From an uncultured Collinsella sp. (GTDB lineage Bacteria; Actinomycetota; Coriobacteriia; Coriobacteriales; Coriobacteriaceae), in assembly GCA_902461085.1 (NCBI GenBank), contig CABPWH010000001.1, forward strand, positions 10,520 through 74,519: DNA of 64,000 nucleotides. The letters run 5' to 3'. Below the pieces are notes generated by a model that did not search any database, was not told the DNA's origin, and worked only from the letters and a program-made list of their open reading frames with translations. Positions 5,326-40,125 of this stretch are shown piece by piece. The position numbers and the translations under genes were made by a program. Every line of letters begins with the position of its first letter. Within the stretch, counting starts at the first letter, position 1.

Positions 5326-5344
5326 GGATACCTTTCATAGTCAT

Positions 5345-5384
5345 TGGGGACGTTCTTACATGACCAGTCGTTTAAGAACGTCCC
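5345..5384 (-). other. Intercistronic stem-loop between the S-component and ATPase genes
   Basis: ggggacgttctta-N14-taagaacgtcccc forms a perfect 13-bp stem with no U-tract. It lies just upstream of the ecfA RBS. Confidence 0.5.
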
Positions 5385-5432
5385 CAAAAGCTAGTCGTTT
5401 GGGACAGTCTTTGCTGGTGGGGCAGCGATGAG

Positions 5433-6003: not shown

Positions 6004-6078
6004 ATGGTGAAAATCCTTTCGGAAGGGGAGTGCAAGAGAAAAGCGGAGGCGCGTGATGCGAATGCGATCGGGCTCGAG

Positions 6079-6110
6079 ATAGAAAAAAGGCCCCCGGTCG
6101 AAACCGGAGG
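6079..6110 (-). terminator. Intrinsic terminator / attenuator in the leader of the ECF operon
   Basis: Minus-strand RNA: ggccuccgg-uuucga-ccgggggcc (9-bp stem with one G-U pair) followed by uuuuuucu. Confidence 0.7.
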
Positions 6111-6148
6111 CCTTTCAATCACCTAGAGCGCAAAAACAGGCGTGAGGG

Positions 6149-6217
6149 ACTCACTGTCGACCGATCGTATTCGCATCACGCCACCACCAGTTGTTGAGAG
6201 AGTTCATCGTGTTCTTC
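6149..6217 (-). CDS. Leader peptide ORF, 22 aa, MKNTMNSLNNWWWRDANTIGRQ (three consecutive Trp codons)
   Basis: ATG preceded by a perfect RBS aaggag at a 7-nt spacer. The stop codon lies 38 nt upstream of the terminator stem. TGG TGG TGG at 6179-6187. Confidence 0.5.
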
Positions 6218-16680: not shown

Positions 16681-16828
16681 CTAGCAGGTGGAAATTCCAG
16701 TCCCAAAGTGATCGTCACCAGCAACGCCTGCTCTTTCAGCAACGACACCCATTCGTTCAGGATTCTCAGCCCCAGCTCGTAGCCAAGCCGCCGTCCACTC
16801 CAGATACCCTGATTGCCACGTGGCGGCA

Positions 16829-16955
16829 GGGGCCCTACAGGGTAAAGCTCTGAAAACTTTCCGCAGGACGCATGAAACCCCCGCCGCACGAAGTGCGCAG
16901 CGGGGGTTTCATGCATGTCCGAGGACGTTTTCAGAGCTTTACCCTGTAGGGCCCC
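16829..16955. repeat. Giant nested palindrome P1: 29-bp perfect outer arms, 15-bp perfect inner arms and a 5-bp core hairpin
   Basis: ggggccctacagggtaaagctctgaaaac ... gttttcagagctttaccctgtagggcccc; inner gcatgaaacccccgc/gcgggggtttcatgc; core cgcac-gaa-gtgcg. No U-tract on either strand. It lies 15 bp past the pta stop codon. Confidence 0.8.
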
Positions 16956-18182: not shown

Positions 18183-19385
18183 ATGCAGATTACCTCAGGC
18201 CTGCCTGAAGGCTTTAACGCCGGCGCGTACGACATGATTGTCGTCGGTGCTGGATATGCCGGTGCCGTTTGTGCCCGCCGTCTCGCCGAGACCATCGGCT
18301 ATCGTGTTGCCGTTTTGGAGCGCCGTAGCCACATTGCGGGCAATGCCTATGACTGCACTGACGAGGCCGGAATCCTGATCCACGAGTACGGTCCGCATAT
18401 CTATCACACCTTTAACGAGCGCGTGCACAATTTCCTGTCGCGCTTTACCAAGTGGACGGATTATCAGCACAAGGTGCTCGCCAACATCAACGGTACCCTT
18501 ATGCCCGTGCCCTTCAACCATGCGAGTCTCAAGCTCGCCTTTGGTGACGAGCGCGGCGAGGAGCTGTATCAGAAGCTCGTGGAGACCTTTGGCAAGGATG
18601 TCAAGGTGCCCATTATGGAGCTGCGTAAGAAGAACGACCCCGACTTGGCCGAGGTCGCCGATTACGTCTACGAGAACGTTTTTTTGCATTACACCATGAA
18701 GCAGTGGGGCCAGACGCCCGATCAGATCGATCCCTCGATCACCGGCCGCGTTCCCGTCTTTGTGGGCGATGATGACCGCTACTTCCCGCAAGCCCCCTTC
18801 CAGGGCATGCCGCAGGAGGGCTACACGGCGCTCTTTGAACACATGCTCGACCACGACCTGATCGACGTGTTCTGCGACGTGGACGCCCGCGATCTCTTTG
18901 AGATCGACGAGACCACCGTCAAGATCGACGGCAAGGTCTATGGTGGCGAGATTGTCTATACCGGTCCACTCGACGAGCTGTTCAACCTCGACTTGGGTGC
19001 GTTGCCGTACCGCACGCTCGATATGAAGTTCGAGACGCTCGATATGGACCAGTTCCAGCCCGTGGGCACCGTCAACTACACCACGAGCGAGGACTACACG
19101 CGTATCACCGAGTTCAAGAACATGACCGGTCAGGTCCTGCCCGGCAAGACCACCATCATGAAGGAGTACTCCAAGGCCTATACGCCCGGCTCGGGCGAGA
19201 CGCCGTACTACGCCATTCTTGAGCCCGAGAACCGTGAGCTCTATGAGCGCTATCTTGAGCGCGTCCAGAATCTGACGAACTTCCACCCGGTGGGTCGTCT
19301 GGCAGAGTATCGTTACTACGATATGGACGCTGTGACCAATTCCGCCCTCGATCTTTCGGATGAGATTATCGCCTGCCATGCATAA
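18183..19385 (+). CDS. glf: UDP-galactopyranose mutase
   Basis: 400 aa with an FAD-binding GAGYAG motif, strongly conserved UGM blocks (IHEYGPHIYHT) and RBS aaggag. Confidence 0.85.
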   Translation: MQITSGLPEGFNAGAYDMIVVGAGYAGAVCARRLAETIGYRVAVLERRSHIAGNAYDCTDEAGILIHEYGPHIYHTFNERVHNFLSRFTKWTDYQHKVLANINGTLMPVPFNHASLKLAFGDERGEELYQKLVETFGKDVKVPIMELRKKNDPDLAEVADYVYENVFLHYTMKQWGQTPDQIDPSITGRVPVFVGDDDRYFPQAPFQGMPQEGYTALFEHMLDHDLIDVFCDVDARDLFEIDETTVKIDGKVYGGEIVYTGPLDELFNLDLGALPYRTLDMKFETLDMDQFQPVGTVNYTTSEDYTRITEFKNMTGQVLPGKTTIMKEYSKAYTPGSGETPYYAILEPENRELYERYLERVQNLTNFHPVGRLAEYRYYDMDAVTNSALDLSDEIIACHA

Positions 19386-20409
19386 AGTCATAACATTCGG
19401 TATTCCCTCGTATAACGCCGCCAAGGACATGGACCATTGCATCACCTCCATCTTGGAGGGGAGCAATTACGCCACCGATATCGAGATTATCGTGGTGGAC
19501 GACGGCTCCAAGGACGAGACGGCCGATAAGGCCGATGAGTGGGAGGCGCGTTATCCCGGTATCATTCGCGCGGTACACCAGGAGAACGGCGGCCACGGTA
19601 TTGCCGTCCTTTCGGGTCTGTGCGAGGCACAGGGCACCTACTACAAGGTTGTTGATTCGGACGACTGGCTTGACGGCGCTGCCCTTTCGACCATGCTGTC
19701 GATTCTGCGTGGCTTTGAGGAGCGCGACCAGCGCGTTGACCTGTTTATCTCGAACTACGTGTACGAGAAGGTTTACGAGGGCACGCATACCGCTATTGGC
19801 TACAAATTTGCCCTGCCGCGCAAGAAGATCTTTTCCTGGGATCAGATCGGTCATTTCCGCCTGGACCAGAACCTACTCATGCACAGCCTGTGCTATCGCA
19901 CGGATGTGCTGCGCGAGTCCAACCTTCCCATGCCGCCGTACACGTTCTATGTGGACAACATCTACGCCTACGTGCCGCTGCCGCGTTGCAAGACCATGTA
20001 CTACGCCGACATCGACCTCTACCGCTACTTTATCGGTCGCGAGGGCCAGAGTGTCAACGAGGCCACGATGGTCAAGCGTCTGGACCAGCAGTTCCGTGTG
20101 ACGCGCATCATGATGGAGTCGTACCACCTGTACAGCGATGTTGAGTCGTCGCGTCTGCGCTCGTACATGATGGGCTATTTCACCATGATGATGGCGATCT
20201 GCTCGGTGCTCACCAAGCTTTCCGAGGAGGATTGCGCCGACGAGCGCCTAAAGACGCTGTGGAATGATTTGAAGGCCTACGACGAGCGCATGTATCGTCG
20301 TGCCCGCTACGGCGTGGTCGGCTTCTTCACTAACCTGCGTGGACGGGCCGGGGACAAAACCACACTCGGCCTATACCGTCTTGCCTCAAAGATCTTCAAA
20401 TTCAACTAG
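19378..20409 (+). CDS. Family 2 glycosyltransferase (probable galactofuranosyl transferase partner of glf)
   Basis: GT2 N-terminal Rossmann domain (ITFGIPSYNAAKDMDHCITSIL, VVDDGSKDET, DSDDW). Overlaps the glf stop by 8 nt. Its last 12 codons lie inside palindrome P2. Confidence 0.8.
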   Translation: MHKVITFGIPSYNAAKDMDHCITSILEGSNYATDIEIIVVDDGSKDETADKADEWEARYPGIIRAVHQENGGHGIAVLSGLCEAQGTYYKVVDSDDWLDGAALSTMLSILRGFEERDQRVDLFISNYVYEKVYEGTHTAIGYKFALPRKKIFSWDQIGHFRLDQNLLMHSLCYRTDVLRESNLPMPPYTFYVDNIYAYVPLPRCKTMYYADIDLYRYFIGREGQSVNEATMVKRLDQQFRVTRIMMESYHLYSDVESSRLRSYMMGYFTMMMAICSVLTKLSEEDCADERLKTLWNDLKAYDERMYRRARYGVVGFFTNLRGRAGDKTTLGLYRLASKIFKFN

Positions 20410-20605
20410 CACAGAAGCGCTCGGGTAACGGGGACCCCTGGTCCTTAACTTGCTACTTCGAACAGTCCTGCGCAAGACGGAGGCGCCACTGGCGCCTCCT
20501 TTGCGTGCGGAACTCGTATCAAGTTAAGGACCAGGGGTCCTCTGCTATGTCTCGCTTTGTGTCAGCAAGCTGAATTTGAAGATCTTGGACGCGCGGTACA
20601 CAGGG
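20365..20605. repeat. Giant nested palindrome P2, about 240 bp with three nested tiers
   Basis: Outer imperfect arms with a 17-bp perfect core aagatcttcaaattca (20385-20401 / 20570-20586). Middle 21-bp perfect arms ggacccctggtccttaacttg (20431-20451 / 20519-20539). Core hairpin ggaggcgcc-act-ggcgcctcc (20478-20498). Confidence 0.8.
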
Positions 20606-20633
20606 GCCTGGGCTGAAAGAGATCTTGTTGAGT

Positions 20634-20758
20634 AGGTTGCCCGGTGGGGCTTGGTTATGTTTGTCGCGAGTTCCGCACGAGCCGAAGAGCACTTAATGTG
20701 CTCTTCGTGCGAGCCAGGACTGTAGAGCAGCAAACATAACCAAGCCCCGCCGGGCAAC
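20634..20758. repeat. Giant nested palindrome P3: 29-bp arms with one mismatch plus inner stems
   Basis: ggttgcccggtggggcttggttatgtttg ... caaacataaccaagccccgccgggcaacc; inner gaagagcac-ttaat-gtgctcttc. Shares the 13-mer cgagttccgcacg with P2 in inverted orientation. Ends 14 bp before the S58 peptidase stop. Confidence 0.8.
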
Positions 20759-20771
20759 CGGACGACCTAGT

Positions 20772-21773
20772 TTACTTTGCGGCTCCGGGGACGCCGTGGG
20801 AGGTTTTGGCAGTTTTGGCTCCGTTCACGATGGCGGTTTCCAGGGCCCTTACAGCGAGCATGCCCAGCAGGTCTAGGGGAACGGCGGCGCTTGCTTGGGC
20901 GCCTAGTTTGCCGCTGGCGAGGGTGTAGATGGTGTCGCCGTCGTTGGTGGTGTGCGTGGGACGGATGGCGTGTGCGTAGGCGTCTGCGGCCATCTGGGAG
21001 ACCTTGGTGGCTTGTGCCTTAGTGAGTTCCACGTTGGTGACGATGCAGCTGATGGTGGTGTTGGTGCGGTCGAGCGGCATCTGCATGGATCCGGCGGCGG
21101 CAAAGGCTGCGAGTTCCATGTCGACGATCTGGTCGCTATCGGCTGCGGCGCGCATACCGGCGACCCACTCGCCGGTGAAGGGGTCGACAACGTTGCCGCA
21201 GGCGTTGACCGAGACCACGGCGCCCACCTTGATGGGGCCGAGAGCCAAAGCGGCAGCGCCAAGGCCGGCCTTCATGCAGGTAGCGGGGCCCATGAGCTTA
21301 CCCACGGTAGCGCCCGTGCCGGCGCCTACGTTGCCCTGTTCGAGCTTGGTGGGGGTGTGGTCGAGTGCTTCGCGCACGGCGGCGATGCCGGCCTCAATGT
21401 CGGGGCGAACGGTGGGGTTACCAAAGGCGAGATCGAAGATACAGCTGGAGCACACGATAGGCACCTGCGTGGGGCCGACGGGAAGGCCGATGCCGCGTCT
21501 CTCAAGCTCGCGAGCGACGCCGCTTGCAGCCTCGAGGCCAAAGGCCGATCCACCCGAAAGGCAGACGGCGTGTACCTTGTCGACGGTGTTCTCGGGTCGC
21601 AGCAGGTCGGTTTCGCGCGATGCTGGAGCACCGCCGCGAACGTCAACGCCGCCGGTGGCGCCCTCGGGTGCCACGATTACGGTGCAACCGGTGCCGGCCT
21701 CCTCGTCCGTATAGTTGCCATAGCAAAAGCCATCGACATCGCAGACGTCAATGGCCTCGAGCAGTGTATCCAT
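20772..21773 (-). CDS. P1/S58-family peptidase (DmpA/L-aminopeptidase D-Ala-esterase-like)
   Basis: 333 aa carrying GTGCTVIV and the VRGGAPASRETDLL block typical of DmpA/ArgJ-fold autoproteolytic enzymes. RBS aggag. Confidence 0.75.
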   Translation of the reverse strand: MDTLLEAIDVCDVDGFCYGNYTDEEAGTGCTVIVAPEGATGGVDVRGGAPASRETDLLRPENTVDKVHAVCLSGGSAFGLEAASGVARELERRGIGLPVGPTQVPIVCSSCIFDLAFGNPTVRPDIEAGIAAVREALDHTPTKLEQGNVGAGTGATVGKLMGPATCMKAGLGAAALALGPIKVGAVVSVNACGNVVDPFTGEWVAGMRAAADSDQIVDMELAAFAAAGSMQMPLDRTNTTISCIVTNVELTKAQATKVSQMAADAYAHAIRPTHTTNDGDTIYTLASGKLGAQASAAVPLDLLGMLAVRALETAIVNGAKTAKTSHGVPGAAK

Positions 21774-34984: not shown

Positions 34985-35053
34985 AAGTTGCGGTGGAATA
35001 GTTCCTGTTTGGCCGTCTTGAGGGGTTAAACGGGAACTATTTCACCGCAACTT
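34985..35053. other. Long stem-loop (21-bp arms, one mismatch) in the structured intergenic region
   Basis: aagttgcggtggaatagttcc-N27-ggaactatttcaccgcaactt. Confidence 0.6.
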
Positions 35054-40054: not shown

Positions 40055-40125
40055 GGGACGAGCCCCAGATTGCCACGGCGTGCTTTTGCGCGCGCATGGG
40101 CAATCTGGGGCCCGTCCCATTTTTC
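40055..40125 (+). terminator. Long-stem intrinsic terminator after xerD
   Basis: gggacgagccccagattgcc-N24-ggcaatctggggcccgtccc (20-bp arms, one mismatch) followed by atttttc. Confidence 0.7.

Follow-up and report, generated by a model that had tools for sequence, protein, structure and literature searches.

The long palindrome P3, lying in the 64,000-nucleotide stretch of DNA analysed here (the window), is one member of an apparently undescribed family of hairpin repeats of Collinsella and Coriobacteriaceae. The adjacent palindrome P2 and P3 are oppositely oriented copies of one repeat family, and a third palindrome, P1, is a diverged family member. The family is new and the behaviour of its core and arms is unusual, while the general category, bacterial intergenic palindromic repeats, is a familiar one. 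The literature searched, including a 2024 review of prokaryotic MITEs, contained nothing comparable for Collinsella, Coriobacteriia, Coriobacteriaceae or Actinobacteria. On balance, the sequence comparisons favour a transcribed 3'-UTR hairpin repeat, similar in kind to the REP, ERIC and Correia elements, the arms of which would be matched by template switching and the cores exchanged. The features of the window are the following:

16702..16952, minus strand: P1 presence/absence segment of 251 nt, comprising P1 and a 3' tail of ~125 nt (filled/empty comparison)
16829..16955, minus strand: P1, diverged family member, AACGTCCTCG ... CTGCGGAAAG (59-nt arms; covariance model 17.7 bits)
20383..20410, plus strand: left arm of the outer inverted repeat around P2 (last codons and stop codon of GT2)
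20432..20540, plus strand: P2, complete family member of class II with a short internal loop and a GCC-ACT-GGC apex (inverted repeat, covariance model)
20565..20592, plus strand: right arm of the outer inverted repeat around P2 (inverted copy of the GT2 3' end)
20635..20759, minus strand: P3, complete family member of class I (inverted repeat, folds, covariance model, orthologous copies)
20731..20759, minus strand: 5' arm of P3 in element orientation (inverted repeat; orthologues)
20715..20723, minus strand: conserved 5' core motif ACAGTCCTG of P3, within the 5' half of the asymmetric internal loop
20685..20707, minus strand: apical hairpin GAAGAGCAC-ATTAA-GTGCTCTTC of P3 (stem covarying family-wide; ATTAA loop near-constant)
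20669..20679, minus strand: conserved 3' core motif CGTGCGGAACT of P3, including most of a 13-mer pointed out in the initial annotation
20635..20663, minus strand: 3' arm of P3 in element orientation (inverted repeat)

The stop codon of the S58 peptidase gene and the start of P3 are separated by 12 nt. The initial annotation had described arms of 29 bp with a single mismatch around an inner 9-bp hairpin, and the inverted-repeat search recovered the same structure, two 29-nt arms that are 97% complementary at a spacing of 67 nt. On the plus strand the inner hairpin reads GAAGAGCAC-TTAAT-GTGCTCTTC (20685-20707). The fold energy of P3 is -90.4 kcal/mol on the plus strand and -85.4 kcal/mol on the minus strand, compared to means of -44.6 and -41.9 for shuffled P3 (z = -11.8 and -11.6, respectively), and none of 200 dinucleotide shuffles was as stable. 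The single mismatch is a derived substitution in the 5' arm, where P3 has C and the orthologues have T; the orthologous copies in contigs L021, L026, L058, L092, L122 and L124 pair without mismatch. The locus is present in ten same-species human gut metagenome contigs, and P3 is invariant there except for one base.

P2 begins 22 nt past the GT2 stop codon and has its arms at 20432-20456 and 20516-20540. Both ACAGTCCTG and CGTGCGGAACT occur exactly twice in the 64 kb, in P2 on the plus strand and in P3 on the minus strand, and on the sense strand of the preceding gene both elements display the order ACAGTCCTG, mid-stem, apical hairpin, CGTGCGGAACT. The 13-mer CGAGTTCCGCACG, located at 20667-20679 in P3, had been reported to occur inverted in P2. 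The match is indeed exact, and its reverse complement lies at 20504-20516 rather than at 20500-20512. Together with the outer 28-nt inverted repeat P2 makes up a 210-nt structure with a fold of -122 kcal/mol; this outer repeat and the derived nature of the P3 mismatch had both been overlooked. A replaced P2 allele is found between the same flanks in L006, its arms differing at five positions, all compensated, and its interior resembling the reverse complement of the P3 interior (a P3-like core).

P1 lies 15 nt beyond the pta stop codon and has an allele in L007 and a further related copy in L038. The 251-nt segment containing it is missing from two same-species metagenome contigs, L003 and L010, in comparison with L001 and others. 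GGG is repeated at both junctions of the segment and makes the boundaries ambiguous; in this single filled/empty pair the GGG is the only candidate for a target-site duplication, and a very short one. A conserved 3' tail was considered as a family feature, prompted by this indel, and was rejected, as non-orthologous right flanks align like shuffled sequence. The P1 tail itself (16702-16826, minus strand) is approximately 85-88% conserved in L007 and has a short open reading frame, MGVVAERAGVAGDDHFGTGISTC, within it. Several hairpin elements are adjoined by another small repeat family of the approximate sequence CGGAAAsnGTGTCCCrGAATT ... GGGAT..GTTTCCGC. It was seen in the right flanks of L024, L069 and L096 and in the extra 200 nt of the pta-ackA spacer L007:10803-11359, and the window fragment GGGACTGGAATTTCC (~16690-16701), next to the P1 tail, could be a vestige of this small family.

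The palindromes at 5344, 6051, 34985, 40055, 24464 and 30064 were rejected as members, their scores being at most 15 bits and the family motifs missing, and the long-stem terminators of this genome are therefore a separate phenomenon. The 40055 hairpin, which the initial annotation had mentioned alongside P1-P3 for its long stem, has no family core, and the same applies to those at 34985, 6051 and 5344. The long-stem hairpins at 40055-40118, 34985-35053 and 5344-5387 have arms of 29, 26 and 21 nt, respectively, and a T-tract follows the one at 40055. At 6051-6181 an ordinary terminator, AAAAAAGGCCCCCGGTCGAAACCGGAGGCCTTTC, is nested inside a 21-nt inverted repeat (95% complementary) without the family core.

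The spread of the family was assessed by scanning the exact split pattern ACAGTCCTG-N26-44-CGTGCGGAACT in viral contigs and in a one-genome-per-species collection. The exact 20-base pattern matched at least 137 copies on at least 122 contigs overall (at least 120 contigs in the one-genome-per-species collection and two viral contigs). Among the matches listed nearly all come from Collinsella or Coriobacteriaceae, together with two Eggerthellaceae MAGs, and the at least 137 copies listed comprise 40 distinct cores. A blastn search with P3 gave 13 places in one 900-kb C. aerofaciens record, and family copies were not found in the phage collection. The initial annotation had staked its proposal of a repeat family on the existence of copies elsewhere, and there are more than 130 of them in Collinsella and relatives.

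Covariance model R1 was trained only on copies outside the window and run over the window with filters off. P3 scored 102.3 bits on the minus strand and 25.5 bits on the plus strand, P2 80.9 bits on the plus strand, and P1 17.7 bits on the minus strand (E 0.013 over 64 kb) with GUCCU and UGCGGAA in register. Beyond P1-P3 the model finds only generic hairpin-level scores across the 64-kb window. Copies generally score approximately 100 bits on the sense strand and 30 bits on the antisense strand. Rfam 15 gave no matches over the window at gathering thresholds, and at permissive E-values the only overlap with P2 or P3 was mir-203, at a chance-level 19.9 bits against a threshold of 65. With 17.7, 81 and 102 bits, the three palindromes do belong to a Coriobacteriia-specific structured repeat family, as had been supposed.

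Several observations concern the records themselves. In the IMG/VR contigs L011 and L012 a copy lies 8 nt behind a host-like gene, which ordinary Collinsella contigs (L030, L082) have as well; L011 and L012 may be prophage-adjacent host DNA or misclassified. Approximately 23 of the 137 listed copies end at a contig end inside the hairpin (L014, L034, L041-L043, L054, L057, L060, and further L069, L076, L077, L082, L089, L097, L101, L108 and others), and Collinsella short-read assemblies evidently break at the family repeat. L043 (CAVHBE010000088.1), a 5-kb contig filed as Methanobrevibacter smithii, terminates in a typical Collinsella element and is probably bin contamination. The record NZ_OY725717.1 (L137-L140; 899,693 bp) is filed as 'plasmid 6' of C. 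aerofaciens TSDC17.2-1.1. With recA, groEL/ES, ribosomal proteins, many tRNA ligases and pnp among its genes, it seems to be chromosomal DNA under a wrong plasmid label.

The element is 110-180 nt in size and consists of a hairpin with a sequence-conserved asymmetric core inside long G+C-rich arms. The order of the core is 5' ..CTGCTCT-ACAGTCCTG, mid-stem, apical hairpin with the ATTAA loop, and CGTGCGGAACT-CGCGA.. 3'. The outer arms are 19-55 nt long, G-rich on the 5' side and C-rich on the 3' side, with the loose pattern CCCGG..GGGGCGGGG, and are followed by a semi-conserved A+T-rich inner arm (TTAAGTTTG / CAAACTTAA) and then by the conserved asymmetric internal loop. The mid-stem occurs in three covarying versions, CGCAAGACG..TTTGCG, CTCACGACG..TGTTCG and CTCGCACG..GGCTCG, and the apical stem of 9-10 bp covaries freely beneath the ATTAA loop. 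Compensated double changes were found in 19 of the 24 pairs of the consensus fold. Paired cells amount to 93%, compared to 69.5% in column shuffles (0/500 as high) and to at most 56% when the partners are slid. In the arms 96.3% of the pairs are Watson-Crick (2890 pairs in 88 distinct copies); the wobble pairs, 39 G.U in sense and 29 in antisense, display no strand preference and are uninformative on the strand.

The invariance of ACAGTCCTG and CGTGCGGAACT is partly artificial, because both motifs are imposed by the search pattern. Indeed, copies found solely by the covariance model vary at these motifs (GGTCCTG, GCGGAATCT), and the residual universal signal is GTCCT[GC] ... TGCGGAA. The subtypes include a short-internal-loop class to which P2 belongs, a valS-upstream type, a loop type CATGCTCAA..GCGCGTGGA and a short form without the apical hairpin. 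In core subtype A the apical hairpin and TTTG are similar to the ordinary terminator nearby in L024 and L069. Inspection of the core by eye gave no convincing match to K-turn, IHF, dif, ECF-promoter or attC motifs.

Flank similarity groups 113 complete copies into 28 genomic loci. Positions relative to genes were counted with a codon log-likelihood gene caller that had been validated on the Pfam-supported genes of the window. Approximately 16 of the 28 loci have the element in sense orientation 3-59 nt past a stop codon and approximately 10 have it antisense between co-directional genes, and three loci lie between divergent genes. The gene-proximal side is the 5' end of the element at most loci, and at no fewer than four antisense loci this end abuts the ribosome-binding site and start codon of the antisense gene. 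On the sense strand a hairpin with a T-tract was found within 250 nt downstream at 17 of 32 representative loci, as compared to 6/32 and 7/32 in two control sets of flank and strand and to 11/32 on the opposite strand of the right flank. At these 17 loci the canonical terminator is a separate one, 30-220 nt downstream of the element, and copies are often situated ahead of, within or overlapping an ordinary terminator. Because the canonical terminator downstream is so often a separate one, the elements cannot simply be equated with terminators; they reside in 3' UTRs and intergenic spacers, where the usual terminator is a different structure.

The 900-kb C. aerofaciens record illustrates these arrangements. 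One copy lies directly behind the pnp terminator, which precedes and overlaps the element, with an inverted partner before rnj, and another is upstream of groES. A convergent glycosyltransferase and dut each have a sense copy behind them, with an ordinary bidirectional terminator in between. The genes beside the inspected copies include valS, clpX, pnp, rnj, groES and pta, and no transposase was found beside copies in the few-kb neighbourhoods and the 200 kb of one record that were read.

In the window the gene order is glf and GT2 (19360-20409) on the plus strand, facing S58 peptidase (20772-21773), Maf, DJ-1/PfpI and tRNA methyltransferase on the minus strand. As had been noted, P2 adjoins GT2 and P3 adjoins S58 as a convergent pair, with no T-tract after either element. 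A scan of 20300-20900 found no T-tract, canonical terminator or sigma-70-like promoter, and the sole terminator-like match there, a 5-pair stem at 20408-20421 on the minus strand, occurs at the rate of shuffled sequence. In the relative L134, S58-GT2 synteny is kept (S58 being 78% identical) and the spacer of 129 nt has one canonical terminator and neither P2 nor P3, whereas the window has two elements and no canonical terminator. It is thus plausible, as judged from this arrangement, that P2 and P3 act as terminators or insulators at the GT2/S58 locus. The initial annotation had given each gene its own terminating element, which may be right here but is not general, considering the 17/32 loci with a separate terminator and the approximately 10/28 antisense loci.

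Two further observations were made on the neighbouring genes. For glf and GT2 (18183-20409) a GC-frame caller chose the wrong strand, while the codon-usage caller and Pfam place them on the plus strand. Their codon-position composition is atypical, and the two may therefore have been acquired together as a module for cell-wall glycan. The exact GT2 protein is absent from the records and the S58 protein is widespread.

The arms and the core have evolved differently. Between different loci the outer arms are unrelated (median identity 48%, maximum 79%), and identical 55-nt cores occur within unrelated arms. At the same orthologous locus the median arm identity is 66% and the differences are always compensated (L015 vs L020; L109 vs L123). 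By a crude estimate the arms have diverged by 0.19-0.22, which is about equal to or slightly above the synonymous third-position divergence of the adjacent genes (0.11-0.19), and the cores, by an equally crude estimate, by 0.09-0.12, below the arms. Copies occupy fixed orthologous sites across many species, and the core subtype is not locus-specific, as A, B or C may be found at one site across species. No empty sites were met among the fetched loci, which is expected given how the loci were chosen. The family is largely vertically inherited, and its arms are constrained, or kept, only to pair. An invertible switch, with the core flipping between the arms, was rejected after 0 inversions in 558 orthologous comparisons.

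Individual copies record unusual events. The element at L017:6690-6808 is a recombinant of two diverged alleles with unpaired arms. In the second element of L113 a perfect complement of the 3' half of the core has taken the place of the 5' half, and in the comparison of L019 with L102 a short-subfamily copy lies in opposite orientation at a site where the other species has a full copy. Extra inverted repeats of host-like sequence enclose the element at 6 distinct loci, compared to 0.1% in shuffles. The examples include the coding end of GT2, the T-tract of the pnp terminator, which has been copied inverted into the far arm, and the copy upstream of groES, which splits a TTTTCTGAATGCCGGG..CCCGGCATTCAGAAAA terminator. 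Mutation by template switching is established for quasipalindromes (PMC7202029). Taken together, the patterns of the arms, cores and outer repeats point to maintenance of the palindrome at the DNA level, with outward growth by fold-back template switching and exchange of cores, and switching from arm to arm is probably what keeps the arms matched. The lack of a strand bias in the wobble pairs is expected if pairing is maintained in DNA and not selected in RNA.

In the explanation that we favour, the element would be co-transcribed in the 3' UTR and fold into a very stable irregular hairpin, which on the RNA could be a barrier to 3' exonucleases, a substrate of a double-strand RNase or a pause site. 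Where the canonical terminator is gone, as between GT2 and S58, each of the two convergent genes could have its element as terminator or insulator. A host factor would be expected to recognise the conserved internal loop. Intrastrand template switching would keep the arms complementary and extend the palindrome into flanking host sequence, and cores would be swapped between copies via short-tract ectopic conversion or re-insertion. Spread to new sites would be rare and would prefer terminator hairpins. Some findings speak against parts of this scheme, among them the missing strand bias of the wobble pairs. The antisense loci with the element 5' end at a ribosome-binding site are unexplained by a simple 3'-UTR role, and the 30-55 perfect arm pairs far exceed the need of an RNA barrier. 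As to a function of the core, conversion alone could keep core identity between copies.

The main alternative is a mobile element that acts at the level of DNA with the help of a putative enzyme. The family would then be an active non-autonomous DNA transposon of MITE or REPIN type, the ssDNA hairpin of which is cleaved in its core by a trans-acting enzyme, for example an HUH/Y1 transposase or a recombinase recognising the asymmetric core, and RNA effects would be incidental. We consider this unlikely, although much is compatible with it: the family is interspersed and multi-copy, P1 is present or absent within a species and P2 and P3 between relatives, the wobble pairs have no strand bias, and a different element or opposite orientation may occupy one orthologous site (L102 vs L019). 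Elements are also nested in other palindromes, in the way IS elements target REPs, and assemblies break within the element. Even the vertical inheritance and long life of the copies have a parallel in the REPIN-RAYT systems (PMC3116915; bioRxiv 10.1101/2022.05.22.493013). However, no arms are common to two loci (the maximum and median identities being those given above), so that no recent copy-and-paste of the whole hairpin is evident. Conserved terminal repeats are missing, nothing but a GGG at the P1 junctions hints at a target duplication, copies are fixed at orthologous sites in many species, and the inspected ones adjoin valS, clpX, pnp, rnj, groES and pta instead of a transposase.

It is also conceivable, but in our view rather improbable, that only the core of approximately 75-90 nt is heritable, as selfish DNA that enters or converts existing hairpins, chiefly terminators, the palindrome around it being built and constantly rewritten from flanking host DNA through fold-back template switching. 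Such a core would explain why identical cores sit in unrelated, perfectly paired and neutrally drifting arms, and why arms hold the last codons of a gene or the T-tract of a terminator. If true, the core would represent a new type of selfish DNA, mobile or convertible, that has no conserved ends and may do without a transposase of its own.

Equally doubtful is the view that the elements are plain factor-independent terminators, a conserved type without a U-tract, with P2 ending GT2 and P3 ending S58. Copies do lie directly behind stop codons and their stems are very stable, the GT2/S58 spacer is without the canonical terminator that the relative L134 has, and the apical hairpin and TTTG of subtype A are like the ordinary terminator in L024 and L069. 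Still, the arms are not followed by a T-tract, a canonical terminator lies downstream at 17/32 loci, and at pnp one comes before and overlaps the element. Copies are also found directly upstream of ribosome-binding sites (valS and others), where there is no room for a promoter and full termination would therefore silence the genes. In addition, a terminator needs neither a sequence-conserved asymmetric core nor a fixed polarity.

Long perfect double-stranded RNA is a natural substrate of RNase III. Correia elements bind this enzyme and are cleaved by it (PMC2649163). A small-RNA precursor, a scaffold that would offer a locus-specific duplex to a double-strand RNase and release short RNAs acting in trans, would suit such processing and the combination of a conserved core with a variable perfect duplex, but is very improbable, as the arms are not independent sequences, sharing the loose composition CCCGG..GGGGCGGGG, and a rate of drift as near to neutral as theirs speaks against a specific target.

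Collinsella is common in the human gut, and the genus is represented by hundreds of species-level genomes. The repeat is unannotated, although dozens of copies occur per genome and lie directly behind housekeeping genes, pnp, pta, valS and groES among them. It may affect mRNA 3' ends and convergent transcription. A constant core combined with arms that diverge at about the synonymous rate and are yet 96% paired provides a natural system for studying the maintenance of long palindromes, and could help to decide between selection on the RNA and template switching in the DNA. As bait, the conserved internal loop could serve to find a putative nucleic-acid-binding factor in Coriobacteriia, and the covariance model and motifs permit annotation and masking of the family.

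The element is like the REP/REPIN, Correia, ERIC and BOX/RUP/SPRITE repeats in its location and folding, and does not have the conserved stems or terminal repeats by which these are defined. REP, BIME and REPIN sequences of Enterobacteria and Pseudomonas are extragenic palindromes in transcribed 3' UTRs and between cistrons (PMC3116915, PMC3337134). Similarly to the Collinsella family they are mostly vertical and long-lived, often occur as inverted pairs and are nesting targets for other elements (PMC3116915, PMC3337134). REPs, however, are 20-40 nt long, with a conserved stem sequence and 5' GTAG-type tetranucleotide, and depend on a RAYT gene (PMC3116915, PMC3337134), whereas the Collinsella element is 110-180 nt, its arms are unconserved between loci and it is the central asymmetric loop that is conserved. 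No REP-type conserved stem or terminal motif was found, only a loose G-rich arm composition being common to the loci. The comparison with RAYT covered the neighbourhoods read (a few kb around copies and 200 kb of one record); the neighbours there are housekeeping genes and none is a RAYT.

The Correia elements (CREE) of Neisseria are approximately 100-150 nt, consist of inverted repeats around a conserved core and are gene-adjacent, and they are further alike in being co-transcribed, in forming hairpins bound and cut by RNase III and in insertion polymorphism between strains (PMC2649163, PMC2229807). Their terminal repeats of 26 nt are conserved, a TA is duplicated at the target, and they carry an IHF site and ends that form promoters (PMC2649163, PMC2229807). 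The Collinsella arms, in contrast, are variable, and neither a clear target duplication nor a match to the IHF consensus or to a promoter was found. As regards MITEs in general, insertion polymorphism is present, the P1 segment being missing in L003/L010 and P2 and P3 in L134, and conserved terminal inverted repeats are not, since it is the interior that is conserved and the arms vary. The pneumococcal BOX, RUP and SPRITE are structured intergenic repeats of small size, which occur in clusters and also inside each other, and SPRITE is similar to a Rho-independent terminator (PMC3049150, PMC10969869). These have modular structures or conserved terminal repeats, and in none of them is a constant core enclosed by a perfect stem of variable sequence.

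ERIC (IRU) sequences of Enterobacteriaceae and Vibrio are imperfect palindromes of approximately 127 nt, transcribed, intergenic and present in few to hundreds of copies per genome. They are likewise conserved across species and have size variants produced by internal insertions or deletions, but are conserved over their full length, occur in both orientations, belong to another phylum and have no sequence relation to the present family. The mycobacterial TRIT is a repeated terminator family without a U-tail. TRIT and Rho-independent terminators share with the Collinsella element a stable G+C-rich hairpin a few bases past the stop codon; the element differs in its size, its structured interior of 67 nt, its fixed polarity and the frequent separate terminator alongside. 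A Rho-independent terminator has a stem of ~5-15 pairs, a small loop and a U-tract, and P2 and P3 lack the T-tract. In integrons each gene is followed, always in the same orientation, by an attC site, an imperfect palindrome of 57-141 nt in which structure is conserved over sequence. The core sites of attC are RYYYAAC / GTTRRRY, and the genes surrounding the Collinsella element give no cassette array or integrase context. In attC the stem base (R''/R') is conserved and the centre is variable; in the Collinsella element it is the opposite, with a stem base that varies from locus to locus around a conserved centre.
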